Of a stretch of 32,000 nucleotides of DNA, positions 6,300-26,477 are shown one piece after another. The translations under genes were made by a program, and so were the position numbers. The stretch lies in the NCBI GenBank assembly GCA_963704755.1, contig OY969938.1:1-32000 (forward strand), given 5' to 3'. The DNA comes from an uncultured Chloroflexia bacterium (GTDB lineage Bacteria; Chloroflexota; Anaerolineae; Anaerolineales; Anaerolineaceae). Each line of letters starts with the position of its first letter. Within the stretch, counting starts at the first letter, position 1. Below the pieces are notes generated by a model. That model was not told the origin of the DNA. It ran no database searches and was given only the letters and a program-made list of their open reading frames with translations.

Positions 6300-6353
6300 C
6301 CGAATTTGAAGCATTTGTGCGGGCGAAAGCCCGCACAAATGCTTCAAATTCGG
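6300..6353. repeat. Long perfect palindromic hairpin element H1 (25 bp stem, GAAA loop)
   Basis: CCGAATTTGAAGCATTTGTGCGGGC-GAAA-GCCCGCACAAATGCTTCAAATTCGG. Arms verified as exact reverse complements. Sits in a convergent spacer that already holds a terminator at 6150. Confidence 0.9.
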
Positions 6354-6390
6354 TCCTCAATCCATTAAGTTAGGCGATTTAGATAAGAAA

Positions 6391-7383
6391 CTACTTTTTT
6401 CGCTTGCGGGCCAGCAGGAGCAAGACAAAGAACAAAATCGCCCAGGGATGCGCACTCAGCCACAAGACGCCCTGAAAGACCTTGCGGGCGAACTGGACCC
6501 GGCGGGCGTAGTGGATCTCCTGGGGGCGTTCCTCCCAATCCAAATTGACCAGCTTTTCCAGGTAGCCCTCGCGCTGGCAACCTTCCAGGCTGAATACGAA
6601 GATATCCTTGTCCAGCCGGTGGGCAGCAAGCAGGTCCTGCTTGAATTCGGCCCAGCTCAACGGACGGGTATCCGCGACGCCTTCCAGGTCGACCCCGCCG
6701 CCGGTGCTGCCAATCCCGACCGCCTGGGCGCAGGCGCCGTAGCTGCGCAGCAAGGCCGGTCCGAAAGGCCGCTCGAAGCTGGAATAAAGCATTAACACTT
6801 CGTGGTCGACCGGCAGGTCGAGGATGCCGCTCAAGGCCTGGATCAGGTGGGAGTGGGTCAGGCGGGCGTCCTGAATGTAGGGGAGCTGGTAGCTTTCGAC
6901 TTCAAAGCCGTCCCGGCGGATGCGCCTGACCAGATCGAGATACTGGTTTTTGATTTTGGCATTCGCCCGCCGTTGGCCTGTCTTGGCCAGCAGGCTGGCC
7001 GCGCCGGCGAAAAAGCCCCGTTTGAAGTCCTGGGTGAACTGGATGTCCGGTTCGATATCCAATCCGACGCGCTGCCAGGCCAGCCCGAACTCACCGGTCC
7101 AGGCGAGGAAGTCCAGGTAGCGCTGGCTGGCGGCCGGGTAATTATCCAGGTTGAACCAGTATCCCTGGGCCATGGGCAATAACAGCCAGGCGGTCACCGG
7201 GATCCCGGCCTGGTTCAACTTCTGCACGATTTTGGCGCGTTGAGGAGAGAGGTCGCGTAAGCCCATGGCGATCCCGGCGTCCATGGATTTAAGCGCAGCC
7301 AGAACGTCCTCCTGGGAGAGCAGGTCCACCAATTCAGGCGTATCCAGCTCACAGGCAAAAATGATCGGGGTGGGTTTGGGCAT
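6391..7383 (-). CDS. Hypothetical protein with C-terminal membrane anchor
   Basis: 330 aa ORF with coding-like composition. C-terminal hydrophobic stretch WAILFFVLLLLA followed by RKRKK. Starts 24 nt after the ROK kinase stop, so likely co-transcribed. No family recognised. Confidence 0.7.
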   Translation of the reverse strand: MPKPTPIIFACELDTPELVDLLSQEDVLAALKSMDAGIAMGLRDLSPQRAKIVQKLNQAGIPVTAWLLLPMAQGYWFNLDNYPAASQRYLDFLAWTGEFGLAWQRVGLDIEPDIQFTQDFKRGFFAGAASLLAKTGQRRANAKIKNQYLDLVRRIRRDGFEVESYQLPYIQDARLTHSHLIQALSGILDLPVDHEVLMLYSSFERPFGPALLRSYGACAQAVGIGSTGGGVDLEGVADTRPLSWAEFKQDLLAAHRLDKDIFVFSLEGCQREGYLEKLVNLDWEERPQEIHYARRVQFARKVFQGVLWLSAHPWAILFFVLLLLARKRKK

Positions 7384-7407
7384 AATGGCTCCTGAATGGC
7401 GAAGGGA

Positions 7408-8307
7408 TCAGGCCTGGAAAGCTTGTTCGGCCAGGGCAATGGCTCCCAGTACACCGGCCGTATTGCCTAAGCCGGGCGGCAGAATGTATTCGTCGATGGC
7501 ATCGATGATCTGCGGGCTTTGCACGTAACGGTTCAATAATTGCTGGACCTTGGTGCGCACCATGGAGAAAAGGTGGCTTTGCTGCATCACACCCCCGCCC
7601 AGGATGATCCGTTCGGGAGAAAGCGTACAGATATAGTCGCTGAGGGCAGTAGCGATGTAATAGGATTCTAGCTCCCAGGCCGGGTGATTTTCCGGTAAAG
7701 TTTCCGCGGGCTGGTTATAGCGCGCTTTCAGCGCCGGCCCGCTGGCTAATCCTTCGAAACAATCTGAATGGAAGGGGCAGACCCCTTCGAACGAGTTGAC
7801 CTTGGGATCACGGATCAGGAAAATATGGCCCATCTCGGGATGGACCATTCCGTGGTACGGCCGGCCGTCGACGATCAGACCGCCGCCGATACCGGTGCCA
7901 ATGGTCAGGTAGATATAATTGTTTAATCCCTGGGCTGCGCCCCAGCGACCCTCGCCCAAGGCGGCCGCGTTGACGTCGGTGTCGAGGATGGCCGGAATAC
8001 CGGTCTGCTCCTGAACCCGGTGCAGGATATCTACAAAGGACCAGCCGGGTTTTGGGGTGGCAGTAATACAGCCATAATGTTCGGATTTGGGATTGAGGTC
8101 CAGCGGCCCAAAGCTGCCAATGCCAATCCCGTCCAGGTGCAAGCCGTTTTTTTGCATAATGCTCTTGAAAAAGTCGGCGATCAACGCGATTGTTTCGCCG
8201 GGACTGGTGGTTGGAAAACGGGTTTCCGCAAGGATATGTTCGGGGGAAGATCCAACTGCACACACAATTTTTGTCCCCCCTGCTTCGATTCCGCCGTAGA
8301 TGGCCAT
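7408..8307 (-). CDS. ROK family sugar kinase (fructokinase/glucokinase-like)
   Basis: 299 aa. N-terminal GGIEAGGTK ATP-binding motif and the ROK zinc motif region CPFHSDCFEG. Confidence 0.9.
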   Translation of the reverse strand: MAIYGGIEAGGTKIVCAVGSSPEHILAETRFPTTSPGETIALIADFFKSIMQKNGLHLDGIGIGSFGPLDLNPKSEHYGCITATPKPGWSFVDILHRVQEQTGIPAILDTDVNAAALGEGRWGAAQGLNNYIYLTIGTGIGGGLIVDGRPYHGMVHPEMGHIFLIRDPKVNSFEGVCPFHSDCFEGLASGPALKARYNQPAETLPENHPAWELESYYIATALSDYICTLSPERIILGGGVMQQSHLFSMVRTKVQQLLNRYVQSPQIIDAIDEYILPPGLGNTAGVLGAIALAEQAFQA

Positions 8308-8473
8308 AAACTGCTCCTGTAAAATGGATGTGGGTTGTTCACTATGGCAAAAATAAAATGCGTTTTAAACTGGTTCTGTGTCGGGTACAGCAGATACCGG
8401 ATACCCCTATATTGTAACTGGGATCATAATATCGGGCAGGTGATAAATGCCACATGTATAAACCGGTAGATAT

Positions 8474-8482
8474 TGGTATAAT
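8474..8482 (+). promoter_or_regulatory. Candidate extended -10 promoter (TGgTATAAT) about 275 nt upstream of the alpha-oxoamine synthase gene
   Basis: TG at 8474-8475 and TATAAT at 8477-8482. Weak -35. Motif only. Confidence 0.25.
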
Positions 8483-8757
8483 CACCCAAAGGAATGGGTG
8501 GGATTGTAAGGATTGTCTGGACGACTTACCCTCAGCAATTATTATCCTTGTTATTGTAACTGTTCGTGCCAGCCATCTCAAAAAAAAATCTTCAAAAAGG
8601 ATGTACGTAGGGGAGTAGATCCTTCTACCGCCATCCTGTTTTCGAATTATCACAGATATAGGCTGGTAAGTTACTATTTTCATATTTCGCGACCGGCGGA
8701 TCGCTTCCGGGGATAGGTGATGGAAGCTGGTTCCCGGCCAAAGATCGAGGGATTCAT

Positions 8758-9936
8758 ATGGATATTTTTGAAAAATGCTTTAAGTATACAATTGTCCGGG
8801 AAGCCATCGAGCAAGGGTATTACCCCTACTTTATTCCATTGGACGAAAACGAAGGAACCGAGGTCGTTTACAAGGGCCAACGGTTGATTATGTGCGGTTC
8901 GAATAATTACCTGGGCTTGACCACGCACCCGCGGGTCAAAGACGCGGCTTGTGAGGCGATCGGCCGGTATGGATCGAGTTGCACCGGTTCTCGTTTCTTG
9001 AATGGGACTTTGGCGCTGCACGAGCGCCTGGAAGACGAACTGGCCCAATGGGTCGGCAAACAATGTGCGCTGGTCTTTTCGACCGGTATGCAGACCAACC
9101 TGGGAACGGTCAGTGCATTGATCGGGCGGGATGATACCGTCATTATGGACAAGGACGACCACGCCAGCATCGTCGACGGAGCCCGCCTGGGTTATGGCAA
9201 GATCGAACGCTTCCGCCACAATGACATGGAACACCTTGAACGGGTATTGGCCTCCTTGCCTGAAGAGACCGGCAAATTGATTGTGGTGGACGGCCTTTTC
9301 AGTATGGAAGGCGACCTGGCTGCGCTGCCGGAAATGTTACCCCTGGCGCATAAATACGGCGCCCGGGTGATGGTGGATGACGCCCATGGCATGGGGGTTT
9401 TGGGCGGCGGCCGGGGAACTGCGGCTCAATTTGGATTAACCGACCAGGTTGACCTGATCATGTCCACTTTTAGTAAATCGTTTGCTTCGCTGGGCGGGTT
9501 CGTCGCCGGCGATGCCGAGGTCATCGATTACATCAAGCACCATGCCCGTTCCTTGATTTTTAGCGCGTCCATCCCGGCCTCTAATGCTGTGGCGGCCCTG
9601 ACCGCATTGGATATCATGCGCCATGAGCCCGAGCGGATTGCACGGGTCAATGCCATTGGCGACCGGATGCGCAAGGCTTACACTGAAATGGGCTTTAACA
9701 TCGGCCGGTCGGTCACACCGATCATTCCGATCATTATCGGCGACGATGACCGCACTTTCCTGACCTGGCGGCTGTTGTTCGAGAACGGCGTATTCGTCAA
9801 CCCGGTTATCAGCCCGGCGGTCACGGCCGGACACCAGCTTCTGCGCACCAGCTACATGGCCACCCATACCGACGATCAGTTGGATCACGTACTGGAAGTC
9901 TTCCAGAAGGTCGGCAAACAGGTCGGACTGATCTAA
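8758..9936 (+). CDS. PLP-dependent alpha-oxoamine synthase family enzyme (Kbl / BioF / serine-palmitoyltransferase-like)
   Basis: 392 aa. Motifs SNNYLGL, DDAHGMGVLG and TFSKSFASLGG (PLP lysine). The YPYF N-terminal region resembles SPT-like members. No bio or tdh partner genes are in the window, so the substrate is unassigned. Confidence 0.9.
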   Translation: MDIFEKCFKYTIVREAIEQGYYPYFIPLDENEGTEVVYKGQRLIMCGSNNYLGLTTHPRVKDAACEAIGRYGSSCTGSRFLNGTLALHERLEDELAQWVGKQCALVFSTGMQTNLGTVSALIGRDDTVIMDKDDHASIVDGARLGYGKIERFRHNDMEHLERVLASLPEETGKLIVVDGLFSMEGDLAALPEMLPLAHKYGARVMVDDAHGMGVLGGGRGTAAQFGLTDQVDLIMSTFSKSFASLGGFVAGDAEVIDYIKHHARSLIFSASIPASNAVAALTALDIMRHEPERIARVNAIGDRMRKAYTEMGFNIGRSVTPIIPIIIGDDDRTFLTWRLLFENGVFVNPVISPAVTAGHQLLRTSYMATHTDDQLDHVLEVFQKVGKQVGLI

Positions 9937-9945
9937 ACTGTCATC

Positions 9946-9980
9946 AACAAACCCCTCGGTCACACGAGGGGTTTGTTGTT
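9946..9980 (+). terminator. Rho-independent terminator after the alpha-oxoamine synthase gene
   Basis: AACAAACCCCTCG (9946-9958) pairs with CGAGGGGTTTGTT (9965-9977). The T-rich tail is partly within the stem. Confidence 0.6.
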
Positions 9981-10019
9981 CAATAAAAAATCGGTTAATA
10001 CTCCGGTTAGTTCGGAAAT

Positions 10020-10078
10020 GAGGGATGTTTTATTGTTTTTCGCGTGCGAAGCTCGCGAAAAACAATAAAACATCCCTC
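10020..10078. repeat. Long perfect palindromic hairpin element H2 (25 bp arms; centre TGCGAAGCT)
   Basis: GAGGGATGTTTTATTGTTTTTCGCG ... CGCGAAAAACAATAAAACATCCCTC. Arms are exact reverse complements. The centre can extend pairing to a GAA loop with one mismatch. Confidence 0.9.
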
Positions 10079-10146
10079 TCTTTTGCGGTAGCTGAGTAGT
10101 TGCAAAAATGAGTAATACTCATCCTTTGGCAAGAGTTCCTGAATTT

Positions 10147-10183
10147 GAGGCGTTTGCCGGGGTTACACCCCGGCAAACGCCTC
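10147..10183. repeat. Palindromic hairpin element H3 (16 bp stem)
   Basis: GAGGCGTTTGCCGGGG-TTACA-CCCCGGCAAACGCCTC. Lies 14 nt beyond the degV stop. Confidence 0.85.
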
Positions 10184-10196
10184 TGATCCGGTTTTA

Positions 10197-11030
10197 TTAA
10201 TTGTTTTGCAAGTACAGCACCCCGATCGTTCCCGGGCCGCAATGGCTGGCGATGGTTGCACCGGCCGTGCTGATCAGCACATTTTCGATGGGAGCCAGCT
10301 TTTTCAGCTCTTCGGCCAGGTAAGCGGCATCCTCGTCACAGCCGGTGCGGGTGATGAAGACCCGCTTCAAGTCGATATCCGGCAGGTTGGCTTTGAAATC
10401 ATCCAGGAGTGAGTTGAGCGCTTTCTGGCGGGTCCCGCGGATCTTGTCTTTAACCCCCAGGGTGCCGTCTTTGCGCACCTCGATGACCGGGCGGATCTTG
10501 AGCATCGATCCAAAGACTGCTTGCAAAGCGGTGCAGCGACCGCCCTTGTACAGGTAATCCATCGTGTCGATGACGAAGGAAGTGTGCACCTTGGGGATCA
10601 AGTTCTCGATCTCGGCCTGGATCTGGTCGAGGGTGCAGCCCTGGTCGCGTAGGTCCACGGCTTTGAGCACCAACAGACCGATGCCGGTGGACAGATTGAG
10701 CGAATCGATGACCCGGACGTCAGCTTGGGTGACCTGGTCCACGGCCAGCAGGCTGTTGGAGATGGTAGCGGAAAGCATGGAGGAAATGCCGATGTAAAGA
10801 TTCTCGCGACCGGCAGAAAAGCAATCCAGAAATTCCGGAATGGGGACGGCCGATGTCTTGGGAAGCTGGCCGGTCTTGTCCACCAGGCCAAACAATTCAG
10901 GCAGACCGATGTCGCCATCGTGGAATGTTTGATCCTGGATGTAAACGAGCAGGGGAAGGACCTTGATTTGATATTGTTGAATAAGCTCGGGCGGTAAATC
11001 CGCGCAGCTATCGGTAATGATGTTAATCAT
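10197..11030 (-). CDS. DegV family fatty-acid-binding protein
   Basis: The ITDSCADLP motif lies right after the internal ATG at 11030. The 36 codons upstream in the ORF track (to 11138) are AT-rich and look non-coding. Length from 11030 is ~277 aa, typical for DegV. Confidence 0.9.
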   Translation of the reverse strand: MINIITDSCADLPPELIQQYQIKVLPLLVYIQDQTFHDGDIGLPELFGLVDKTGQLPKTSAVPIPEFLDCFSAGRENLYIGISSMLSATISNSLLAVDQVTQADVRVIDSLNLSTGIGLLVLKAVDLRDQGCTLDQIQAEIENLIPKVHTSFVIDTMDYLYKGGRCTALQAVFGSMLKIRPVIEVRKDGTLGVKDKIRGTRQKALNSLLDDFKANLPDIDLKRVFITRTGCDEDAAYLAEELKKLAPIENVLISTAGATIASHCGPGTIGVLYLQNN

Positions 11031-11218
11031 GATGACGGCCTTTGAAATAGGGGTAGAACGACGAATACGGTTATTATAAAACGAAAGTATAGCCAGTTTT
11101 AGAATAGAGTTTTGTATGCGTTTATGGGTGTTGGGCAAGCCAATAAATCGCGAAATTCGAGCGGATCAAAGCGCGCGGCTCTTGTAACGGTATCGAAGTA
11201 GATTTTGCGAACCCCGTA

Positions 11219-12197
11219 TTAGAACCATTTTCGACGGCGGAAGAAAATTAGCATAGCGAGGACGATCACAAAAAAGATCAGCCATATCGCCGGATAACCC
11301 CAACGCCAGGCCAGTTCGGGCATAGAGCGGAAATTCATGCCGTAGACCGCGGCGATGAAAGAAAGGGGCAGGAAGATGGTGGAAACGATGGTCAGGGCTT
11401 TCATGACCTCGTTCAACCGCAGCGAGGTGGAGTTGAGGTACACGTCCAGTGTGCTGGAAGTCATGTCGCGGATGATGTCGATCATGTCGTTGATGCGCAC
11501 CAGGTGATCGTAGATGTCGCGGAAGTAGATGCGGCTCCTGGCGTCGATCACGTTGAACTCGTCCCGGCTGAGGCGGTTGATCATCTCGCGCATGGGTGAA
11601 ATGACCCGGCGCAGGCCCATCAAATGGTGTTTCAATTCGAGAATGCGCTGCAGCATACCTGCATCCGGGCTGGCCAGCATACTATCTTCCAGGTTGTCGA
11701 TTTCTTCCCCCAGTTCATCCAGGTGGGGGATGTAGTCATCGACCAGCATATCCAATATGGCGTGGCAAAAGAAATCCGAGCCGCTCTCGTGGATGCGCTC
11801 GTCGCGGTTGAGCCGGTCCCACAAATTTTGGATCGGAGGCATGGGGTCTTGCGGGTAGGAAGTCACCACAAAATTTGGCCCAAGGAACAGGTTGAGCTCG
11901 ACGTGAGCCAGCTCACCATCCGCCTCAATGGGATTGAGCGCCTGGGCGATGATGAACAGGTAATCGCCAAAATCATCGACCTTCGGAGTTCTGGTAGCCC
12001 ACCGACTGGCAATCTTCGACAGCCAGGGGGTGGAAGTGGAACAGGTCGGCCAGGACGAGATCGATTTCACTTGGGTCGGGCTTTTCCAGGCTGACCCATA
12101 GTAGGACAGCCGGATCGGCCAGGACCTTGGGAATCTCTTCCAGTGCGATATTGTAAATGGGATCGCCAGCAGGCGGATAGAGGATGGACCGGATCAT
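11219..12197 (-). pseudogene. corA: CorA magnesium/cobalt transporter interrupted by a single-base frameshift
   Basis: ORF 11973..12197 encodes the CorA N-terminus, ending ...FHPLAVEDCQSVGYQ. ORF 11219..12070 continues in another frame with PKVDDFGDYLF and runs to the YGMNF motif and two C-terminal TM helices. The two frames overlap around 11975-12010. Confidence 0.85.
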
Positions 12198-12255
12198 AAT
12201 TTCTCCCTGGTTGCGTGGTTCAAACTATTATAGTGATTATTCGATAGCGCGCTAA

Positions 12256-12318
12256 AAGATTTCCAGAATTTGACCTGTGTGTGACAAAGCCACACACAGG
12301 TCAAATTCTGGAAATCTT
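12256..12318. repeat. Long perfect palindromic hairpin element H4 (28 bp stem)
   Basis: AAGATTTCCAGAATTTGACCTGTGTGTG-ACAAAGC-CACACACAGGTCAAATTCTGGAAATCTT. Lies in the divergent spacer between the corA start and the SCP2 start. Confidence 0.9.
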
Positions 12319-12375
12319 ATGAAGTTACCCATTATATTCAAATTAGTGTAAAATCAGCGCGAGGAGAAAACGACC

Positions 12376-12741
12376 TTGAGCGAACCAGATATTTCTTCAG
12401 TGATCAACTCCCTACCGGAATTTTTCCAACCCGAAACTGCGGTCGGAGTAAAAGCAAAGATCGGGTTTGATATCAGCGGTGAGCAGGGCGGACAGTGGGC
12501 CGTAGATATTCAAAACCAAACCTGCCAGGTCACCAGCGGGTTACCGGAACACGCTGATTTGACTTTATCCGCCGATGGGCAAGACCTGATCGATATTTTT
12601 AGTGGCAAACTATCCCCCATGCGGGCCTTTTTTATCGGTAAGCTGAAACTGCAAGGGAATATGTCACAGGCGATGAAGATCAGCGATTACTTCAAAATGG
12701 ATTCGGAGAAGCTTAATCGACTAGGCATCCACCTGGATTAA
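12376..12741 (+). CDS. SCP2 sterol-carrier-like domain protein
   Basis: 121 aa with a TTG start preceded by GAGGAG. GKLSPMRAFFIGKLKLQGNMSQAMK is a typical SCP2 C-terminal pattern. Confidence 0.75.
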   Translation: MSEPDISSVINSLPEFFQPETAVGVKAKIGFDISGEQGGQWAVDIQNQTCQVTSGLPEHADLTLSADGQDLIDIFSGKLSPMRAFFIGKLKLQGNMSQAMKISDYFKMDSEKLNRLGIHLD

Positions 12742-12832
12742 ATAGAAACCGTGACTTATTCTACTCAGCCAATGTAAAACAGGGTGATTTTATTTATGGT
12801 ATGCCTCGCATGCCAAAAAAGAAACCCCAATA

Positions 12833-12870
12833 AGACTTATTTGCGGGGGCTATACCCCGCAAATAAGTCT
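12833..12870. repeat. Palindromic hairpin element H5 (16 bp stem)
   Basis: AGACTTATTTGCGGGG-GCTATA-CCCCGCAAATAAGTCT. Confidence 0.85.
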
Positions 12871-12918
12871 AACAGGGAAATTTTATAAAAGTGGCCTGAG
12901 CTGTTACAAAAATGCAAT

Positions 12919-12946
12919 AAAAAAGGAAGCTTCAGCTTCCTTTTTC
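12919..12946. terminator. Bidirectional rho-independent terminator
   Basis: AAAAAAGGAAGC-TTCA-GCTTCCTTTTT between the convergent SCP2 and sufT-like genes. Confidence 0.6.
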
Positions 12947-12954
12947 TTATGTGT

Positions 12955-13302
12955 CTAATATAAACCCCAGTCGAGGTTGACCGATTCTTCCATCATCGAA
13001 AAATCCCACACCTCCATGCCCAACTCGATCGAGATTGGCATCCCCAGCGCTTCTTCCGCTTTGACGCGGGTCATGTCAATCAGCGCCGGCCCGTACGGGC
13101 AAAACGGTGTGGTCAGGATCATCCGCATCAAGCCATGGTCGCCTTCGACGGTGAAATTACGGATCAATCCTAGCTGGACGACGCTCAAGCCTATTTCCGG
13201 GTCGTTGACTTCGTTTAACGCATCTTTAAGTTTTTCACAAACATCGGGATGAGTTGCTTCGGCATCCCATACGGGTCGATTGGTTCCAGTCTGTTCAGTC
13301 AT
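12955..13302 (-). CDS. sufT: DUF59 / SufT-like Fe-S cluster assembly protein
   Basis: 115 aa. VNDPEIGLSVVQLGLIRN and the CPYGPALID motif are typical of the DUF59 (MIP18/SufT) family. Overlaps the sufR stop by 8 nt. Confidence 0.85.
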   Translation of the reverse strand: MTEQTGTNRPVWDAEATHPDVCEKLKDALNEVNDPEIGLSVVQLGLIRNFTVEGDHGLMRMILTTPFCPYGPALIDMTRVKAEEALGMPISIELGMEVWDFSMMEESVNLDWGLY

Positions 13303-13930: not shown

Positions 13931-13977
13931 ACATTCTCTTCTCTGGCCAGGCGATTTGCCCGGCCTAATCCAACGGA

Positions 13978-14006
13978 AGTATAGCAAAGCCCAATAAATT
14001 TGTCAA
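13978..14006 (-). promoter_or_regulatory. Predicted sigma-70 type promoter for sufR-sufT
   Basis: On the minus strand: TTGACA (plus 14001-14006), 17 nt spacer, TATACT (plus 13978-13983). Confidence 0.5.
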
Positions 14007-14030: not shown

Positions 14031-14059
14031 TTGACCCTTTTAAAGAACCATGCTATAAT
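14031..14059 (+). promoter_or_regulatory. Predicted sigma-70 type promoter for sufCBD
   Basis: TTGACC (14031-14036), 17 nt spacer, TATAAT (14054-14059). Its -35 and the sufR -35 form an inverted pair, GTCAATAT ... ATATTGAC. Confidence 0.55.
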
Positions 14060-14083
14060 CGACAAGAATAAATATTAATTTAG

Positions 14084-14109
14084 ATATTTATGAACAAATT
14101 CATAAATAT
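14084..14109. promoter_or_regulatory. Palindromic candidate operator in the sufC 5' UTR
   Basis: ATATTTATGAA-CAAA-TTCATAAATAT, an 11 bp perfect inverted repeat. It lies downstream of the predicted sufC -10 and upstream of the GGAGG RBS. Confidence 0.4.
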
Positions 14110-14144
14110 CATGAACGCGATAGAACCGGAGGAAATCTTCAACA

Positions 14145-18453: not shown

Positions 18454-19698
18454 ATGGAGTCAATTACAACCGGTACCCTTGACGTGCAGCAAGTTCGTAC
18501 AGATTTCCCGATCTTGCAAAGAGAAACCTCTCCGGGGGTCAAACTAATCTATCTGGATTCAGCAGCGACCTCTCAAAAGCCGGCCAGCGTGATCCAGGCC
18601 ATGCAGGATTATTACCAGCTCTCGAACGCCAATATTCACCGGGGTGTCCACACCCTTGCTGAAGAAGCGACGGCCATGTACGAAAGCGCGCGCGAGCGGA
18701 TTGCCCGGTTTGTCGGGGCAAAAAAGTCGAGCGAAATTGTATATACCCGCAATACGACCGAATCGATTAACCTGGTCGCGTATTCGTGGGGGCGGGCGAA
18801 TCTGAACCCGGGCGACCTGGTTATTTTGACCGAAATGGAACACCATTCCAACCTGGTGCCCTGGCAGATCCTGGCTCAGGAAAAGGGGCTGCGACTGGAA
18901 TTTATTACGGTCACCGGCGAAGGCCTTTTGGACCAGGATTCGTACCGGGCTTTGTTGAGCCAATCGCCTAAACTGGTTGCGTTCACCCATATGTCCAACG
19001 TGTTGGGAACGGTCAACCCGGTCAAGGAAATGACCGCCGCCGCGCATGCGGCCGGAGCGGTGGTACTGGTAGATGGGGCCCAATCGGTGCCGCACCTGCC
19101 GGTCAACGTTCAAGACCTGGATGTGGACTTTCTGGCCTTCTCGGGCCACAAGATGCTTGGGCCGACCGGGATTGGCGCGCTATACGGCAAGGAAAAACTG
19201 CTGGATGCGATGCCACCTTTCCTGGGCGGCGGCGATATGATCAAGAAAGTATACTTGCGCAGTTTTAGCCCCAATGATTTGCCGCATAAATTCGAAGCCG
19301 GCACCCCGGCCATCGCCGAAGCGATTGGATTAGGTACTGCGGTGGATTACCTGACCGGCGTCGGGATGGAATTGGTGGCAGCTTACGAGCACGAATTGAT
19401 CTCGTATGCGCTGGAGGCCTTGAGCGAAGTAGAAGGCGTACGGGTTTATGGCCCAGAAGCGGCCAAAAAAGGCGGTGTGGCCTCCTTTACCCTGGAGGGG
19501 ATCCACCCGCACGACGTATCCCAGATTTTGGATGAAGACGGTATTGCCGTCCGCGCCGGTCACCACTGCGCCATGCCGCTGCACGATAAGTTCGGCCTGG
19601 CGGCCACGACCCGGGCCAGTTTCTATATCTATAACACGCCCCAGGAAGTGGATAAGTTGATCTCCGGATTGGCAAAAGTAAAAAAGATTTTTGGATAA
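18454..19698 (+). CDS. sufS: Cysteine desulfurase SufS (class II)
   Basis: 414 aa. Motifs HHSN, FSGHKM (PLP lysine) and RAGHHCAMP (active-site Cys loop). Confidence 0.96.
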   Translation: MESITTGTLDVQQVRTDFPILQRETSPGVKLIYLDSAATSQKPASVIQAMQDYYQLSNANIHRGVHTLAEEATAMYESARERIARFVGAKKSSEIVYTRNTTESINLVAYSWGRANLNPGDLVILTEMEHHSNLVPWQILAQEKGLRLEFITVTGEGLLDQDSYRALLSQSPKLVAFTHMSNVLGTVNPVKEMTAAAHAAGAVVLVDGAQSVPHLPVNVQDLDVDFLAFSGHKMLGPTGIGALYGKEKLLDAMPPFLGGGDMIKKVYLRSFSPNDLPHKFEAGTPAIAEAIGLGTAVDYLTGVGMELVAAYEHELISYALEALSEVEGVRVYGPEAAKKGGVASFTLEGIHPHDVSQILDEDGIAVRAGHHCAMPLHDKFGLAATTRASFYIYNTPQEVDKLISGLAKVKKIFG

Positions 19699-19708
19699 AG
19701 GTTGAAGG

Positions 19709-20107
19709 ATGGATGATCTCTATCGTGAAGTGATTATCGAACATTACAAATCCCCGTCCTATCGTGGCGAGTTGGACCCGCACGATATTTCCTTCGAGGA
19801 TGAAAATCCGCTGTGTGGCGATCATATCCGCATCGATTTGCGGGTCAACGAGCAAGGCATCGTCACCGAAGCTGCTTTCAGCGGCCACGGCTGTGCGATT
19901 TCACAGGCATCGGCAGATTTGTTGATGGAAACGGTAATTGGAAAATCAGTCGATGATGTTAAGGCCATGACCAAACAGGATATCCTGGATCTGCTGGGTA
20001 TCGAACTCGGCCCGGTGCGCTTGAAATGTGCACTGCTGCCCTTGAAGGTCATTAAAGCCGGTGTTTATGGGTTAGGGGAGGCCAGCGAAAGCCTGGTCGA
20101 GGAATAG
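19709..20107 (+). CDS. sufU: SufU / IscU-like sulfur acceptor protein
   Basis: 132 aa. NPLCGD, GHGCAIS and KCALLP motifs are typical of SufU-type proteins. Confidence 0.93.
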   Translation: MDDLYREVIIEHYKSPSYRGELDPHDISFEDENPLCGDHIRIDLRVNEQGIVTEAAFSGHGCAISQASADLLMETVIGKSVDDVKAMTKQDILDLLGIELGPVRLKCALLPLKVIKAGVYGLGEASESLVEE

Positions 20108-20112
20108 TTTTC

Positions 20113-20454
20113 ATGTCAACCGATGCCGACATTGCTCATTACACCTTTTACAACATTGCTGCCGAAAGCGAGTTGCCGCCAGGTGACCGGTTATTCTTAG
20201 AGATCGGCGATGAGGCCGTGGTGGTCTTCAATATCGCGGGCCAATATCTTGCCATCGGCGACGTTTGTACGCATGATGGCGGTCCGCTGGGCGATGGCGA
20301 GCTAGAAGGCTTTCAGATCGCCTGCCCGCGGCATGGCGCCCGCTTCGACGTGCGCAACGGCAAGGTGCTCACTTTACCGGCTGTAAGCGATGCGCCCAGC
20401 TACCCGGTACGGGTGGTGGATGGGAACATCGAGATCGGGGTTCTGGAAGAATAG
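20113..20454 (+). CDS. Rieske [2Fe-2S] ferredoxin-like protein
   Basis: 113 aa. Rieske ligand motifs CTHDGGPL and CPRHGARF. Starts 6 nt after sufU. Confidence 0.9.
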   Translation: MSTDADIAHYTFYNIAAESELPPGDRLFLEIGDEAVVVFNIAGQYLAIGDVCTHDGGPLGDGELEGFQIACPRHGARFDVRNGKVLTLPAVSDAPSYPVRVVDGNIEIGVLEE

Positions 20455-20456
20455 AA

Positions 20457-20525
20457 GCCCGTATTAAAAAAAGAGGTGTTTGCGTGGGCGAAGCCCACGC
20501 AAACACCTCTTTTTTTAATACGGGC
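20457..20525. repeat. Longest perfect palindromic hairpin element H6 (33 bp stem, GAA loop); also a plausible bidirectional terminator
   Basis: GCCCGTATTAAAAAAAGAGGTGTTTGCGTGGGC-GAA-GCCCACGCAAACACCTCTTTTTTTAATACGGGC. Verified exact. Internal A7/T7 tracts flank the GC-rich core. Lies between the convergent Rieske and ATP-grasp genes. Confidence 0.92.
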
Positions 20526-20551
20526 ATATAAGAAAACAGAAAAAATGCCGG

Positions 20552-21802
20552 CTAAACGGCCGGCGTTTCGATTTTTTGGACGGTGGCTGCCTGCAAGCTG
20601 TATGAGCCGATCGAATGGTCGGAAATCTGGCCGGCCCGGCGGGGATCGAGCAGCAACTGACCGGTGACGACCAGAAAGGGAATGATGCTGCGAATATCCT
20701 GGCTGAAGGGGGTCAGGTCTTCCCGGCTATTGGCAAAAATTTCCTGGTGGATCAAGGACTGCCAGAGCAGCCGGGCAACTTTGGTGCGGGACCCCTGCGA
20801 ATTGGCTGAACCGAGCGCTATGGCCATGGTGCTGTGCGTCCGCACCCCCGGCTGGCCAATCTTGGTTTGGGCGTACAGTTTTGCCTCCCCAAGAGCCGCC
20901 TGGATGGTCAGGTCAGGGAAGTTCACCCCACTATAGAAGGCATTCAGTGGCTCAACCAGGCGTGGATTGGCTTCCAGGTAGTAGGGGTGCCGGTGGCTTT
21001 GGCCGTAGATATAGTCCAGGGCAATCGGGCCATGCCAGGAAAGGGCCTCACCCAACCGGCGCACGTGCGCGATCACATCCGGGTGATTGACGGAAGTGCG
21101 GGCAGCATGCCCGCCGCCAACACTGATTCCGCGGGTGGACGTGCAATGCACACCTAAGAGGCGGCCGTGATCGAAAACAGCCTGCACCTGGCACAGGGCT
21201 CCTTCGACTTGTTCCTGGAGGATGAAACGGCCGTTGTCCGCCTCGTGGGCTTCCAGAAAGGCATCGCGCTGGTGTGCGTTTTCCAGGTGCCAGACACCCT
21301 GTCCGGCCGTACCAAAATCGGCTTTCAGGTAGCAGGGATAGGTGTCGATCGATTGGGCTTCTTTCGCGCGTTCGAATAATTGGAAGGGCGGTTGAGGAAG
21401 ACCAAGCGCTTGCAGGGTCAGCGCAAAGGCGGTTTTGCCCTGCACTTTTTGAAAGGCGCTGAAATCGGCCAGGGCCATGGCGGCCGGGATTACCCCGCGG
21501 AATTTTGCCAACAGGTAAGCCTGTTCGTGGACAGGTAATAAAACCGGATAATTCTCGGAGGTGCATACGTCCGCGACGGCCTGAAGGTATTCGGTTGGCT
21601 GTTCATTGAAACTCGGGCAAGGGTAATAGCCGCGGGTAAAACGCGAAAACCGGCAGATACAACGCAAATCCGGGTCACAGATCCCGACCGGGTAGCCAGA
21701 CAGCCCCAGGACGGTCAGGGCCTGGCGCGCGGATAGACTGGACCCTTCCGAAAATAAAACCTTTGGTTTCGACACCGGATCAGGATTGCGGCGCCAGGCC
21801 AA
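20552..21802 (-). CDS. ATP-grasp superfamily carboxylate-amine ligase-like protein
   Basis: 416 aa with ATP-grasp-like organisation similar to predicted carboligases. The TTG start at 21802 overlaps the upstream gene by 23 nt. An alternative GTG at 21775 lies 4 nt after the upstream stop. Confidence 0.75.
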   Translation of the reverse strand: MAWRRNPDPVSKPKVLFSEGSSLSARQALTVLGLSGYPVGICDPDLRCICRFSRFTRGYYPCPSFNEQPTEYLQAVADVCTSENYPVLLPVHEQAYLLAKFRGVIPAAMALADFSAFQKVQGKTAFALTLQALGLPQPPFQLFERAKEAQSIDTYPCYLKADFGTAGQGVWHLENAHQRDAFLEAHEADNGRFILQEQVEGALCQVQAVFDHGRLLGVHCTSTRGISVGGGHAARTSVNHPDVIAHVRRLGEALSWHGPIALDYIYGQSHRHPYYLEANPRLVEPLNAFYSGVNFPDLTIQAALGEAKLYAQTKIGQPGVRTHSTMAIALGSANSQGSRTKVARLLWQSLIHQEIFANSREDLTPFSQDIRSIIPFLVVTGQLLLDPRRAGQISDHSIGSYSLQAATVQKIETPAV

Positions 21803-22442
21803 ATGCCCCGACCACCCGCAGGATATCGAACCCTTCGGCGTAGCGGCGTTCGCTGATGGCGCCGTTGCGGATCAGAGTCGCGCGGGTAATCTCGGGGTCG
21901 AAATAATAACGGTTCTGGTAGGTCTTGTACTGGGCCAGGGCGTCGATCTTTTTCTGCACATCCTTTTCCTGAACCGCGACCAGAAAGCTGGGGAAAAAGC
22001 CGTAGCTGGAACGGATGACGTCGAAACCCAGCACCGATGTGCCACGGAAAGCCCGCAGGGCTTCTTCAGTGACCGTGGCGTGATCCTGGTGGATATCGGA
22101 TTTGGTGTGGACGAAGACGATCTCCGGTTGGAAGCTGCGGCGGATCTGGAGCATATATTCCAGGATCTCCTGGCGGGCCTGGGGGAAGCGGCGGGTTTCG
22201 AACTGCCCTAAAATGGCTTTTTCTTGAGGCACGCCCAGCACAGCCATGCTCTGGTAGTGTTCTTCCGGCAGGTTAACCAGCTCGGGGTTCTTTTGATTGT
22301 CAGAAAGGGTTACACAAAGGATGTCGGCCTGGCCGTTGATGTGAGAGATCAACGCACCACAGCCAATCTCGATGTCATCCGGATGGGCGCCCAGGAAGAG
22401 GACGCGCTGTCCATAGAAGAGCATATCGGATTTGGTGGGCAT
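21780..22442 (-). CDS. PIG-L / LmbE family N-acetyl-sugar deacetylase
   Basis: 220 aa. Zinc-binding motifs GAHPDDIEIG and HQDH. The ATG overlaps the upstream TAA by 1 nt (TAATG). Confidence 0.88.
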   Translation of the reverse strand: MPTKSDMLFYGQRVLFLGAHPDDIEIGCGALISHINGQADILCVTLSDNQKNPELVNLPEEHYQSMAVLGVPQEKAILGQFETRRFPQARQEILEYMLQIRRSFQPEIVFVHTKSDIHQDHATVTEEALRAFRGTSVLGFDVIRSSYGFFPSFLVAVQEKDVQKKIDALAQYKTYQNRYYFDPEITRATLIRNGAISERRYAEGFDILRVVGAFGLAPQS

Positions 22443-23242
22443 TATTTGGTCGCCAGGATCCCACCCACTACTTTGGTCATGACCAGCTTGCCCGATTCGG
22501 CTACCCGCCGTTCGGCGACGGCCTGGATCCTGGACATGATCCGGTCGAAATCGTCTTTATCCTCGAAGAAACTCTTCCATAGCTTGCGGTCTTCCGAAAG
22601 CGAGGCGCGGGTATATTCCACAAAGGGTTCGGCAGATTCGAACGTCAGCGGGTTTTCGAAAAGGTGCAGATCAACTTTCGAAAAAGTGTTTTGAATGGCG
22701 GAATAGATTTCGCTGGAATAACGTGAGCTGCCGGGCATAGGTGGGATGGGTTTATCGGTCGCTTCGAGGATGATATCGTAAAACAACTGCTTGTTTGCAG
22801 GCATGGGCCCGCTGGTAAATAAAACCCCGCCGGGTTTCAAGACGTGGTGCATTTCCCGAATGGTGAAGGGAATATCCTCGGCGTAATAGATGGCAAAGCA
22901 GCACGATTCCAGGTCGAACGTGTCGCTGGCCAGATCGAAGGTTTTGTTGAAGTTCAACTCCATGAAATTGACCGAAGCACCCATGCGCTGGTTTTCGCTG
23001 CGTGCCTGCCCGAGCAGCTCGGGGTTGACGTCACCACCCAGGATGTCTGCCTGTCCATGGAGAAATTCATTGTAAGAAAAACATTGTTTCCCGGCGCCAC
23101 AGCCCACATCCAGGATTTTTTGGCCGGTGTGCAGAGGTAATAGCTCCAGCATCCACTCATCGATATTGCGACTGCCGTATTTATTATGGATGTCGATCCG
23201 CTTCAACAGGTCGTTGGTCGTTTCTTGATAGTCGTATTTCAT
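22442..23242 (-). CDS. Class I SAM-dependent methyltransferase
   Basis: 266 aa. Motif I ILDVGCGAGK and the post-I acidic GGDV. Confidence 0.88.
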   Translation of the reverse strand: MKYDYQETTNDLLKRIDIHNKYGSRNIDEWMLELLPLHTGQKILDVGCGAGKQCFSYNEFLHGQADILGGDVNPELLGQARSENQRMGASVNFMELNFNKTFDLASDTFDLESCCFAIYYAEDIPFTIREMHHVLKPGGVLFTSGPMPANKQLFYDIILEATDKPIPPMPGSSRYSSEIYSAIQNTFSKVDLHLFENPLTFESAEPFVEYTRASLSEDRKLWKSFFEDKDDFDRIMSRIQAVAERRVAESGKLVMTKVVGGILATK

Positions 23243-23293
23243 ATTTCCTCTTCGTGGCTTGGTTTCGGTTTACTTATATCTTCGAAAATTGCT

Positions 23294-23340
23294 TCAGGTG
23301 TTTGTTTTGGGCAGTTTCACTGCCCAAAGCAAACACCTGA
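23294..23340. repeat. Palindromic hairpin element H7 (21 bp stem with one T-G pair)
   Basis: TCAGGTGTTTGTTTTGGGCAG-TTTCA-CTGCCCAAAGCAAACACCTGA. The single non-Watson-Crick position pairs 23305 with 23329. Lies in a divergent spacer. Confidence 0.85.
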
Positions 23341-23440
23341 GTATGTTTCTCGGGCCGGTTCTAAGTATAAGTGGTTGGTGAGGATTGTCAAGGAATTATG
23401 TTTGGGTGCTACGCAATGACCTATTGTGGGGCAAAACCGG

Positions 23441-23446
23441 TATAAT
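23441..23446 (+). promoter_or_regulatory. Candidate -10 box (TATAAT) 4 nt before the ATGATG at 23451; possible leaderless start
   Basis: TATAAT at 23441-23446 with TGACCT 18 nt upstream (23417-23422). Motif only. Confidence 0.25.
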
Positions 23447-23450
23447 AGTA

Positions 23451-24329
23451 ATGATGAATACGGTTCGAAGCTTGAACACAGTTCTAGACAATTGGGCAAA
23501 GAGCATGAGCTGCCCGATTTGCTGCAAGACCGGATTACGTGTCATTCGCGAACCGGGCGTTCCTGATTTGTTGTGCTGCGATCAATGTGGCTGCGAATTC
23601 TTTTTCGAGCAAGCCGGGGCACGCATCCGATTTTCCAAGACACCGGAATTGTTGGAAGATGTCCTGTACGGTGAATGGATGACATATATCGAGGTTCATA
23701 AGCGTCTCCAGGAGCGCTTCCCGGCCCTGGATGGACCTCGTGCCAGGGTGGATGTGGTCACGCTGCCTGTACGCCGGCAGAAGTCACTTGCACAGGAACT
23801 GGAAGAGGAGGCGCTGTTGGATCTGCCTAAAAACGCGATCGACCAGGCAATGGGGTTGTACCGCCTGGGAAATTCGATCCCGGATATCCGGCGGGTACTG
23901 CAACGCAATCCGAAGTATACCGAGCACGAAATTTTTACCACCCTCAAGAACGTAGGCCATTACGATGCAATGCGTAAATTACGGAGCTGGCTCACAGCCG
24001 GGCTGGTGGTGGTCGTTTTCCTGGCGGCACTCGGTTTTGCCGTTTCGCGTGGTGTTTTCCCGAAACTGATCGCGTATATCGAGGGCACGGTGAATAAGAA
24101 TGCCGCATTGGTGATCCCGGTCACAGGCAGCGCGGCTGGTTCAGCGGTCCAACCGGCATGCCCGGCCACCCCGGAAGCTGCGGCGCAACTCTTCGGGGGA
24201 AAAAGTAATAATTGGACTTACCAGGCTCCCCGTTGGTATTATCAGGATGTGATGCCGGCAGATATTATCGTCCCCAGTGGCATGGAAGCAACCTACCCTT
24301 CATTGACTCGCACCACGATCATGAGTTAA
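23451..24329 (+). CDS. Zinc-ribbon domain single-pass membrane protein (unknown function)
   Basis: CPICC...CCDQCGC cysteine pairs near the N-terminus. One TM helix (LTAGLVVVVFLAALGFAV). ~110 aa extracytoplasmic tail. The start is ambiguous: TTG 23385, ATG 23451/23454, or ATG 23505 directly before the zinc ribbon. Confidence 0.6.
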   Translation: MMNTVRSLNTVLDNWAKSMSCPICCKTGLRVIREPGVPDLLCCDQCGCEFFFEQAGARIRFSKTPELLEDVLYGEWMTYIEVHKRLQERFPALDGPRARVDVVTLPVRRQKSLAQELEEEALLDLPKNAIDQAMGLYRLGNSIPDIRRVLQRNPKYTEHEIFTTLKNVGHYDAMRKLRSWLTAGLVVVVFLAALGFAVSRGVFPKLIAYIEGTVNKNAALVIPVTGSAAGSAVQPACPATPEAAAQLFGGKSNNWTYQAPRWYYQDVMPADIIVPSGMEATYPSLTRTTIMS

Positions 24330-24460
24330 TTGAAAGGGCCGGCGAAACTGAGTAATATAATGGCTGTTTCGATAGCCTGCTTTTATTGAAAATCGCAATT
24401 CCTCGGTCATGGATGTGTGGTCATAAAAATTGGTGGCCACGCATGCCCTTATCTAGAAAT

Positions 24461-24517
24461 CCCCGGAAATGAGGTGTTATCGGTGGTGAAGCCACCGATA
24501 ACACCTCATTTCCGGGG
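24461..24517. repeat. Long perfect palindromic hairpin element H8 (26 bp stem, TGAAG loop)
   Basis: CCCCGGAAATGAGGTGTTATCGGTGG-TGAAG-CCACCGATAACACCTCATTTCCGGGG. Verified exact. Confidence 0.9.
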
Positions 24518-24524
24518 TTCTTAC

Positions 24525-24782
24525 TCATTGGGATGAGTAATTATAAATATCTATCCAATAATTATTTTTCGAATAGACACCATCATTTTTGGCTTGTCCT
24601 TCAAAAATTAAATAGTCGCATAGACTAACTGGATGCTGGTTACGAGCGGACGAATGAATTATCCCGGAATGCTCAACCTCTGGTAGAATCAGGCTGTGGT
24701 TCTGTTGAAAAATGCTATGCAACTGAATAAGTTTGAGACCAGAGGGGATGAGATGAATTCGCATCCCTTTTATGAAATCCAT
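24525..24782 (-). CDS. Questionable small hypothetical protein (85 aa) in an AT-rich segment
   Basis: Only an ORF. Weak RBS, atypically AT-rich for the window, no recognisable motifs. Confidence 0.3.
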   Translation of the reverse strand: MDFIKGMRIHLIPSGLKLIQLHSIFQQNHSLILPEVEHSGIIHSSARNQHPVSLCDYLIFEGQAKNDGVYSKNNYWIDIYNYSSQ

Positions 24783-24861
24783 AAAATTCTATCCGGGCAT
24801 CGCTCAGGTTGGGGTGAATGGGATGATGCGAATTGAAAATAATTCATAGAGGCCAGGATCG

Positions 24862-26364
24862 TTGAAACGGAAAAAGAATAGTAAATTTGCTTTAATTGCC
24901 AGCATCGTGTTTTTATTAGCGGGATTTGCCCTGGGGATCACGCAATGGTTGCAATATTCCAGTCAACCGGATGTGTTCCCAGCCGGCTCTAAGTGGGGGA
25001 GTTTCGATGTGGCCGGTTTGTCGGTCACCCAGGCACAGGACCTGATCCAGGCGACTTTCGATGCGCCGATTGCATTGAATTACCAGGGTCAAACCATCCA
25101 GGTGGACCCAAACGACCTGGGTTATACCCTGGATGACGCCGACCCGCAGGCTGCCCGGCAGTCACCGACCGGTTTGGCCGGCTTCTGGAGTTTTTTGCAA
25201 GGAAAACGGCCGTCCGCGGTTACCCTGGACTTGCCGACGCACCTTGACGATGCGGTTTTGACAGATTACCTGAAGAACCAGGTCGCTCCTCATTATGACC
25301 AGCCTGAGACCGAGGCTGTGCCGATCGCGGGCACGACCGAATTTACGCCCGGACAACCGGGCTACCAACTGAATGTGGATGCCTCGGCAGCGGTGGTCAA
25401 ACAGGCGCTGGAGAATGGCAGCCGCAGTGTGGACCTGGTAGTCAATTCTGTCCCGGCGGGCGGAGTCAGCCCGGCCAACCTGGAAACCTTCATCCGCCAA
25501 CAGATCCAGGCGGCGGGTTTCAATGGCATCGCCGAACTCTACACTCGTAATCTCAAAACGGGCGAAGAAGTCCACTTTGCCTTGCAAAATAACCAGGAAG
25601 TGGACCCTGGTATTTCTTTTTCAGCGGCCAGTACGATCAAAATTCCCATCCTGGTTTCGATCATGCGCCGGACGGACATGCCGGTACCGGACGGCATCAA
25701 TACTTTAATCGAAGATATGATCATCTACTCGGAGAACCCACCGGCGGATGATTTGATGAACGAAGTCATCGGGCAAAACACGGCTCCACTGGATGTAACC
25801 AGCGATATGCATGCCCTGGGATTGGACGATACATTCCTGGCCGGTTATTTTTATGCGGGTGCACCTTTGCTGCAGGTCTTTCAGACCCAGGCCAATTCCC
25901 GCACCGATATCAACCTGGACCCGGATATCTATAACCAGACCACCCCGGCCGATATGGTCAAGCTGCTGACCGCCATCTACAACTGTGCGGATACGGGCAC
26001 CGGCCTCTTGATCGATACTTTCCCCGGCGAGATTACCAAAGAGAAATGCCAGTACATGCTGGATATGCTCAAGCGCAACAAGATTGGCGTTTTGACCCAG
26101 GCAGGTGTACCGGAAGGCACCGCTGTGGCGCACAAACACGGCTGGACCGAAGAATCCGATGGCTACCTGCACACGCTCAGCGACGTGGCGGTGGTCTTCG
26201 CACCGGATGCCGATTATGTGTTCGTACTCTATTTATACGACCCGATCCAACTACTCTTCGACCCTGGAAATGCCTTGTTTGCCCAGTTGAGCCAACTGGT
26301 CTATAACGCCGACAACCTGGATCATCAGGCCGCCTGGCTGTTCGGCCCGGTGACATACCGATAG
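24862..26364 (+). CDS. Membrane-anchored serine hydrolase, class A beta-lactamase-like
   Basis: 500 aa with a TTG start. N-terminal KRKK plus a TM helix. The C-terminal domain has S-x-x-K (STIK), S-x-N (SEN) and a K-H-G variant of the KTG box. Confidence 0.8.
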   Translation: MKRKKNSKFALIASIVFLLAGFALGITQWLQYSSQPDVFPAGSKWGSFDVAGLSVTQAQDLIQATFDAPIALNYQGQTIQVDPNDLGYTLDDADPQAARQSPTGLAGFWSFLQGKRPSAVTLDLPTHLDDAVLTDYLKNQVAPHYDQPETEAVPIAGTTEFTPGQPGYQLNVDASAAVVKQALENGSRSVDLVVNSVPAGGVSPANLETFIRQQIQAAGFNGIAELYTRNLKTGEEVHFALQNNQEVDPGISFSAASTIKIPILVSIMRRTDMPVPDGINTLIEDMIIYSENPPADDLMNEVIGQNTAPLDVTSDMHALGLDDTFLAGYFYAGAPLLQVFQTQANSRTDINLDPDIYNQTTPADMVKLLTAIYNCADTGTGLLIDTFPGEITKEKCQYMLDMLKRNKIGVLTQAGVPEGTAVAHKHGWTEESDGYLHTLSDVAVVFAPDADYVFVLYLYDPIQLLFDPGNALFAQLSQLVYNADNLDHQAAWLFGPVTYR

Positions 26365-26371
26365 TTTAATC

Positions 26372-26408
26372 AAAAAACAGGCAGCGGTTTCTTCTCTGCC
26401 TGTTTTTT
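26372..26408 (+). terminator. Rho-independent terminator (bidirectional form)
   Basis: AAAAAACAGGCAG ... CTGCCTGTTTTTT directly after the hydrolase stop. Confidence 0.65.
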
Positions 26409-26430
26409 ATAGAAGAATTCGACAGGATTC

Positions 26431-26477
26431 TTTGGGGTTATCCATTTGCGGCTTAGCCGCAAATGGATAACCCCAAA
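26431..26477. repeat. Long perfect palindromic hairpin element H9 (22 bp stem, TTA loop)
   Basis: TTTGGGGTTATCCATTTGCGGC-TTA-GCCGCAAATGGATAACCCCAAA. Lies 6 nt beyond the hypE stop. Confidence 0.9.

Follow-up and report, generated by a model that had tools for sequence, protein, structure and literature searches.

Miniature inverted-repeat transposable elements (MITEs) of bacteria are non-coding units of about 100 bp with terminal inverted repeats and a target-site duplication of fixed length, which occur as dispersed intergenic copies and fold over their entire length as a long hairpin. Repetitive extragenic palindromes (REPs) and REPINs are likewise abundant intergenic palindromes in which the hairpin is the unit that matters, but they carry a GTAG head, produce no duplications and depend on a Y1 transposase. 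The Correia elements (CREE/NEMIS) of Neisseria, small palindromic MITEs lying next to genes, are transcribed into long hairpins, can supply promoters or terminators and are cut by RNase III. In the present study, we analysed a 32,000-nt stretch of contig OY969938.1 from an uncultured Chloroflexia bacterium (hereafter the window), the intergenic spacers of which harbour nine long hairpins. A MITE of about 111 bp, present in diverged copies, very probably accounts for these hairpins, which form its inner palindromes. The Correia elements are its closest functional analogy, although they differ in their TA duplication, in their unrelated sequence and in the host phylum, and no homology to them is expected.

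All nine hairpins listed in the first-pass annotation of the window were recovered at the same places by a repeat scan (arms of 17-38 nt, 87-100% complementarity). Our own scan revealed ten perfect stems of at least 14 bp (range 14-33 bp), and the longest perfect stem in 30 dinucleotide-preserving shuffles of the window was 11 bp. The arms and flanks of the hairpins align end to end and yield one consensus, approximately YCCNGAAWTTGAGGYRTTTGC-CGGGC before the loop. This whole-arm alignment, together with the profile matches given below, confirms that the hairpins belong to one family. The sequence modules previously reported to be shared among them are real as well, but their supposed mosaic character is not, the modules being ordinary full-length homology.

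A two-arm pattern derived from the arm consensus (GAGGYGTTTGC, a gap of 6-24, GCAAACRCCTC) matches the window twice, as compared with no match expected by chance, and is present in at least 120 metagenome stretches, with no match in viral contigs or in 34 related suf loci. About 100 of the listed metagenome matches represent one highly conserved element with the consensus GTAACTGCTCAGCCATTAGGGGAAAAGTCCCGAATTTGAGGTGTTTGCGGGTGC-TTA-GCACCCGCAAACACCTCAAATTCGGGGATTTTCCCCTAATGGCTGAGCAGTTAC. Judging from the information content, conservation starts ~48 nt outside the pattern, at GTAAC, which gives arms of ~48+6 nt, and the modal length among copies with both ends is 111 bp. Column-wise pairing divides each arm into three zones: an outer one (columns 1-12) consisting of the mostly complementary terminal inverted repeats (GTAACTGCTCAG…CTGAGCAGTTAC), an asymmetric or unpaired middle one (columns 13-29) and an inner one (columns 30-54) forming the almost always paired 25-bp stem CCGAATTTGAGGTGTTTGCGGGTGC, the loop of which is usually GAA or TTC. 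Since the middle zone occurs in two arm types, the left and right ends of the element are distinct. The octamers flanking the 48 metagenome copies with both ends are identical at 8/8 positions in 22 cases and at 7/8 in 11, and the duplicated 8-bp targets are A/T-rich. Plasmid records contain no blastn match to the element consensus. At locus L056 (1-160), a palindrome runs at least 12 bp past the MITE ends to the contig start; it is likely to be an inverted-duplication assembly artefact and was not used as evidence.

The terminal inverted repeats, the duplication of fixed length, the small size, the lack of coding capacity and the large number of copies together argue for a MITE, in line with one of the options that had been raised for the hairpins. 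The 16-33-bp hairpin itself, formerly regarded as the unit, is not the true one, which is the ~111-bp element with its terminal repeats and 8-bp duplications. The element thus functions as a bacterial MITE, a familiar kind, and its arms stay complementary while the copies diverge. It differs from described bacterial MITEs in having a 25-bp perfect inner palindrome that is separate from the ends and is missing from elements with the same ends, as well as in its very high density; in addition, its parent insertion sequence was not found in the window or in 0.67 Mb of metagenome loci.

The relationship of the window hairpins to this element was assessed by an nhmmer search of the window with a profile built from metagenome copies only (>100). 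Seven of the nine hairpins were found, with matches at 24448-24543 (E=5e-11, profile positions 15-110), 10116-10195 (E=3e-10), 20448-20524 (E=1e-9), 6289-6366 (E=1.6e-8), 12818-12907 (E=3e-4; this one reaches the last base of the terminal repeat, profile position 111) and 12253-12316 (E=0.012), and at the 26431 hairpin (E=1.4). The E-values are flattering, because the two arms of a palindrome match together; still, the alignments extend into the non-palindromic flanks. The terminal repeats of the window copies are diverged but recognisable, and these copies may well be old insertions with eroded ends and duplications.

Duplications of 8 bp combined with long terminal inverted repeats are a mark of DDE integration, whereas the Y1 transposases of IS200/IS605 and REP are not known to make either. 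The presence of both in the element points to a DDE-type transposase supplied in trans, which would recognise the terminal repeats and act by a cut-and-paste or copy-paste route. Other short elements carry the same ends around unrelated interiors. Hence, it is the ends that define what moves, and the palindromic core is cargo, presumably a passenger dispensable for movement. As for the family of the parent, 8-bp duplications are made not only by IS66 but by IS6, ISL3, IS256 and IS1595 as well. Because of this, and because the terminal repeat of the element reads GTAACTG whereas the ends of IS66 start with GTAAGCG (PMC11946415), an IS66-family parent, suggested by the GTAA ends and by the 8-bp direct repeats that arise upon IS66 insertion, should be regarded as a lead only; no tnpA, tnpB or tnpC genes were seen.

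Two further elements deserve mention in this respect. Locus L053 contains at 9420-9554 a 135-bp element with the ends GTAACTACTCAGCC…GGACTGAGCAGTTGC, a duplication matching at 7/8 positions (CGTTTCAT/CTTTTCAT) and an unrelated, non-palindromic interior; it represents a second MITE type, presumably served by the same transposase. Meanwhile, an 88-bp perfect zero-loop palindrome with the ends ACTGCTCAGGC is located just after sufD in a metagenome-assembled genome (MAG) of Chloroflexota (L020, 11565-11652). Five further stems of 14-24 bp occur over 21 kb of this MAG, and the palindrome appears to be a related element from a second lineage.

Between window copies, the inner arms share only 63% identity, as compared with 87% between metagenome copies, and their identity to the consensus is 68-84%. 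The stems of the window copies are nevertheless perfect or near-perfect, while independent decay of the arms would leave ~60% of the pairs intact according to our own estimate (~0.75 squared). Covariation was examined in an alignment of 32 copies not selected by the two-arm pattern, eight of which come from the window. In this alignment, 89.8% of the cells are paired and double changes are present at 26 of the 26 inner pairs. The cells changed on both sides number 118, as compared with 33±4.7 in shuffles, none of which (0/500) reached 118, and with 35-59 in the controls where the partner was slid. Differences from the inner-stem consensus in copies not selected by the pattern were compensated in 85 cases and mismatched in 69. 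Double changes, including transversion pairs such as GC to CG or UA, occupy 106 cells of the inner helix, versus 29 cells with one-sided G·U-type states. The earlier proposal that symmetry between the arms is kept while the copies diverge is thus borne out both by the double changes and by the near-perfect stems. An excess of G·U as a test for selection on RNA was considered and dropped, since copies are inserted either way round and it is not known which strand is transcribed.

Three features of the palindromes favour DNA-level copying over selection for folding alone. When the element is oriented by its asymmetric outer arms, the loop is of the GAA type in ~15 copies and of the TTC type in 10, so the centre inverts independently of the ends. 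Furthermore, in 11 of 108 copies the palindrome continues up to 0-2 nt from the axis, a region in which the bases of a hairpin are unable to pair. Finally, the nhmmer alignment of the copy at 20457 reveals a symmetric pair of 6-nt insertions (left arm, A6; right arm, T6), giving an A7-stem-T7 arrangement. As reported previously, a single template-switching event during replication can perfect a stem, introduce compensatory changes at several sites and invert a loop (PMC8794818). The reading we prefer, albeit tentatively and at somewhat less than an even chance, is that the inner palindrome is kept symmetric by a DNA-level process which acts repeatedly on hundreds of copies and uses one arm as the template for the other. 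The candidates are template switching in replication, either intrastrand or between the arms, and repair of an extruded hairpin, and such copying would also account for the flipped loops, the symmetric indels and the palindromes running through the axis. Quasipalindrome correction by template switch (Ripley model; PMC8794818) resembles this in the perfected repeats, multiple compensatory changes and loop inversion, and in our case all three are seen as signatures; the published descriptions, however, concern single loci, rRNA and mutation clusters across genomes, not a steady force on a MITE family.

Other explanations of the hairpins were weighed as well. The first-pass annotation had also considered REP/REPIN-type elements, moved by RAYT (an IS200/IS605-like Y1 transposase) via single-stranded hairpin intermediates. 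Short, abundant intergenic palindromes would be in keeping with this, and arm symmetry suits recognition as a hairpin; however, the young copies have 8-bp duplications and long terminal inverted repeats, their ends read GTAAC with no GTAG head, and there is no Y1 transposase gene among the window genes, so this option is highly improbable. Even more improbable, and refuted by the profile matches and the target-site duplications, is that the hairpins are ordinary intrinsic terminators which evolved independently and converged on GC-rich stems and stable loops. Six of the nine do lie between convergent genes, GAA or GAAA loops occur and the 20457 copy has full U-tracts, but the ~100-bp alignment, which includes non-stem flanks, leads to an element with terminal repeats and duplications, most of the hairpins have no T-run, and such long stems are almost absent from the related Anaerolineaceae loci (the 34 suf loci). 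Moreover, two of the hairpins are placed in promoter-bearing spacers of divergent genes, and in four spacers a short conventional terminator-like hairpin is present besides (6147-6187, 9945-9978, 12920-12945 and 26372-26408), which substantiates the earlier remark that the long ones are surplus to termination needs.

More serious competitors concern the origin of the symmetry. It is possible, though on balance rather doubtful, that the window hairpins descend, each rather recently, from different master subfamilies, whose inner stem would have to stay perfect if the masters are to transpose, remain stable or be tolerated by the host; all 'compensation' would then have taken place in the masters and none by in-place repair. 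There are indeed multi-copy subfamilies with compensated apical stems (GGGTGC/GCACCC, GCTTAC/GTAAGC, GGCCG…/…CGGCC and GTGTGC/GCACAC), the variants GAATTC…GAATTC and TTTTGAGTG…CACTCAAAA recur in several loci, and a distinctive left end, CGCATGCC, is common to two window copies. Yet the eroded terminal repeats and the mostly missing duplications of the window copies do not fit recent insertion, and many compensated variants are singletons in standard copies (e.g. L076, L100, L092_308, L064_3906 and L079). The masters themselves would need a route to double changes, and elements with the same ends and without the palindrome do move, so transposition does not depend on the stem. That selection acts on the fold of a transcript or on a DNA cruciform, with the MITE merely a delivery vehicle, seems unlikely, and a host use of the copies as terminators, stabilisers of mRNA ends, RNase III or attenuator sites or protein-binding palindromes is an equally unlikely ground for it. 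Consistent with selection are the strong covariation at all 26 inner pairs, the predicted RNA folds of the window copies (-40 to -65 kcal/mol), the A7/T7 flanks of the 20457 copy at a terminator-like site for the suf operon, the unusually stable C-GAA-G and GNRA-type loops and the presence of a copy in all five convergent spacers. On the other hand, four of the occupied spacers have a conventional terminator of their own, copies are also found in divergent spacers and in both orientations, some copies decay freely, and no curated RNA family of Rfam 15 matches at the gathering score. In addition, one-sided G·U-type changes are rare relative to double changes with their transversion pairs (29 vs 106 cells), and symmetry through the axis, with 'loops' of 0-2 nt, is beyond what folding can explain.

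Several observations speak against our interpretation of the family, both as a MITE and as a subject of arm-to-arm copying. The hairpins at 23294 and 26431 match the profile poorly, the former giving no nhmmer match at E<10, and most window copies have no recognisable duplication, remnants being present at three (538-576, 9994-10104 and 12233-12328). No autonomous element with these ends was encountered in the window by gene annotation and Pfam analysis of the unknown open reading frames (ORFs), and no long pair of terminal repeats, short variants only, in 0.67 Mb of metagenome loci; the link to IS66 comprises just GTAA and the length of the duplication. The sample of nine hairpins from 32 kb is biased towards perfect stems. 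Some metagenome copies have decayed to 7-9 mismatches per 25 pairs, so any symmetrising process is not universal, and part of the 'compensation' is common to multi-copy subfamilies and could stem from master copies.

The window represents an ordinary chromosomal region with genes for tkt-rpiB-tal/pgi, scrK, a serine-palmitoyltransferase-like protein, degV, corA, sufR, sufCBD-S-U and hypEDFB. Its SufD is 75-78% identical to those of Bellilinea species and of a Chloroflexota MAG, which indicates an Anaerolineaceae-like chromosome. The element profile has no match in the 34 related suf loci (SufD relatives of 54-78% identity), and the family is hence lineage-specific rather than common to the group as a whole. 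The contigs with the closest orthologs, L155 and L156 (67% amino acid identity), have no copy on either side of the gene, their spacers being too diverged to align. Meanwhile, the metagenome contigs carrying the element often contain multiple copies, up to six in 13.6 kb, in agreement with the density of approximately one copy per 2-3 kb in the window. One of these contigs bears a 75%-identical fragment of the serine-palmitoyltransferase-like gene of the window beside a ROK kinase gene, which suggests that the metagenome hosts are related bacteria. Stop-free stretches of at least 120 codons make up 89% of the bases but contain 17 of 91 copy centres, so the copies avoid coding sequence. In the window, at least one copy is present in 5/5 convergent and in 2/4 divergent spacers.

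Literature searches found no description of MITEs in Anaerolinea or Chloroflexi. The family accounts for a striking sequence feature of an Anaerolineaceae-like genome and, at its density, shapes many spacers and probably breaks assemblies. It puts strong hairpins at gene ends, leaders and promoters and can mislead predictors of terminators and small RNAs. The part worth following up is the co-evolution of the arms together with the flip-flop of the loop. What preserves long perfect stems during divergence, selection or templated mutation, is an open question for RNA hairpins generally (PMC8794818), and the family offers many independent replicates for addressing it. If copying at the DNA level is true, the family would be a natural genome-wide record of quasipalindrome correction, holding multi-site 'compensatory' changes, loop flip-flop, symmetric indels and palindromes through the axis, and transposon hairpins would become host terminators without stepwise selection.

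In the order of their position, the window copies begin with an internally deleted one (538-576), which has kept the ends GTAACTACTCAGGC…CGGTTAC and lost the palindromic core. It is flanked by the octamers TAATTAAT and TTATTAAT (7/8 identical), shows a weak nhmmer match to both ends of the profile and matches the terminal-repeat pattern at 538. A nearby hairpin at 620-670 (AAAAGAGGTGTG…CACACCTTTTTT), formerly recorded as the 628 terminator, has GAGGTGTG in common with the MITE core; this is probably an ordinary terminator, as it has a proper T-run and no profile match. Copy 1 (6263-6373, 111 bp) has a perfect 25-bp stem at 6300-6353 with a GAAA loop and shows six compensated pairs relative to the family consensus. 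The spacer in which it lies, next to the conventional terminator 6147-6187, is bordered by tal-pgi and by a convergent unknown gene, and no target-site duplication is recognisable at its flanks.

Two copies share the spacer that separates the serine-palmitoyltransferase-like gene from the convergent degV. The first of them, copy 2 (9994-10104), contains the 10020-10078 hairpin (25 bp perfect, or 28 bp at 96%), and its membership is supported not by a profile match but by the length of 111 bp, by the ends GTTAATACTCC… and …GCTGAGTAGTTGC and by the 6/8 agreement of the flanking octamers AAAAATCG and AAAAATGA. Copy 3 (10113-10215, ~103 bp, right boundary approximate) has a 17-bp perfect stem at 10147-10183, matches the two-arm pattern exactly and begins with GTAATACTCATCC 8 bp past copy 2. 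The two thus stand in tandem (9994-10215), exactly 8 bp apart, and since the AAAAATGA spacer is at the same time the remnant of the right duplication of copy 2, copy 3 seems to have inserted at the very edge of copy 2. The right arm of copy 3 overlaps the degV stop codon (10197-10199) and the last few codons, and the protein may have acquired an altered C-terminus through this insertion (10197-10215).

Copy 4 (12233-12328), 96 bp long due to a shortened right arm, carries a perfect 28-bp stem at 12256-12318 and is flanked by the octamers CTATTATA and CCATTATA (7/8). The spacer that harbours it separates corA from a divergent SCP2-like gene and is thus no terminator position; the arms of the copy overlap weak promoter-like hexamers for both genes. 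Matches to miRNA precursors at 12251-12320, obtained with Rfam at relaxed E-values, lie far below the threshold and were dismissed as chance. The corA ORF next to this copy (11219-12070) begins at approximately position 65 of the 320-position CorA model, and an upstream ATG in a good ribosome-binding context (12195-12197) is in another frame, the translation of 11219-12199 meeting a stop; a frameshift, a pseudogene or a sequencing error close to the 5' end may be involved. Copy 5 (12799-12907, 109 bp) lies in a convergent spacer beside the terminator 12920-12945. Its core (12826-12877) comprises a perfect 16-bp stem at 12833-12870, extendable to 23 bp at 87%, and its right terminal repeat GGCCTGAGCTGTTAC is nearly intact.

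Copy 6 (20434-20530), the second exact match to the two-arm pattern, is located between the convergent suf Rieske and ATP-grasp genes, 2 bp after the last suf gene. Its core hairpin spans 20452-20530, with a stem of 33 bp perfect (20457-20525) or 38 bp at 95%, and the outer ends of the copy are not recognisable. It is the only copy which fully conforms to an intrinsic terminator, i.e. a GC-rich stem followed by a U-tract, and it was scored as such on both strands; the 10020 copy has a short TCTTTTG run, and the remaining ones have no T-run adjoining the stem. The symmetric A6/T6 indel may have turned copy 6 into an apparent two-way terminator. Judging by sequence, some copies have probably been co-opted by the host, that at 20457 as a two-way terminator-like structure and those at 23294 and 12256 in leader or promoter regions. 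The 23294 copy, copy 7 (23268-23372, boundaries approximate), is assigned to the family by arm similarity only (CAGGTGTTTG…GGGC). Its core at 23294-23340 is a stem of 22 bp at 95% with one T-G pair, and the copy lies in the spacer that separates a methyltransferase operon from a divergent unknown gene. A strong promoter-like site (23391-23364, minus strand) has its -10 hexamer inside copy 7; transcription from it would include copy 7 and place a hairpin in the leader of the methyltransferase operon.

Copy 8 (24433-24544, 112 bp) follows the gene at 23385-24329. It contains the perfect 26-bp stem 24461-24517 with a TGAAG loop, shows seven compensated pairs relative to the consensus and ends with GGGATGAGTAATTAT on the right; its left end, GTGGCCACGCATGCC, resembles that of copy 5. 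An 85-aa ORF (24525-24782, minus strand) overlaps the right arm of copy 8 and, having no family match, is probably no gene, in which case the spacer is flanked by genes of the same strand and not by convergent ones. The ninth hairpin (26431-26477, 23 bp perfect with a 1-nt centre) lies in a convergent spacer beside the conventional bidirectional terminator 26372-26408 and shares only the TTTGCGGC module with the others; the case for its membership in the family is weak.

In addition to these hairpins, a perfect 12-bp inverted repeat, GATATTTATGAA-caaa-TTCATAAATATC, was detected at 14083-14110 in the divergent sufR/sufC spacer, together with strong promoter-like sites at 14031-14059 (plus strand) and 14006-13978 (minus strand), between which it is placed. 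This repeat is probably a SufR operator, unrelated to the MITE family.

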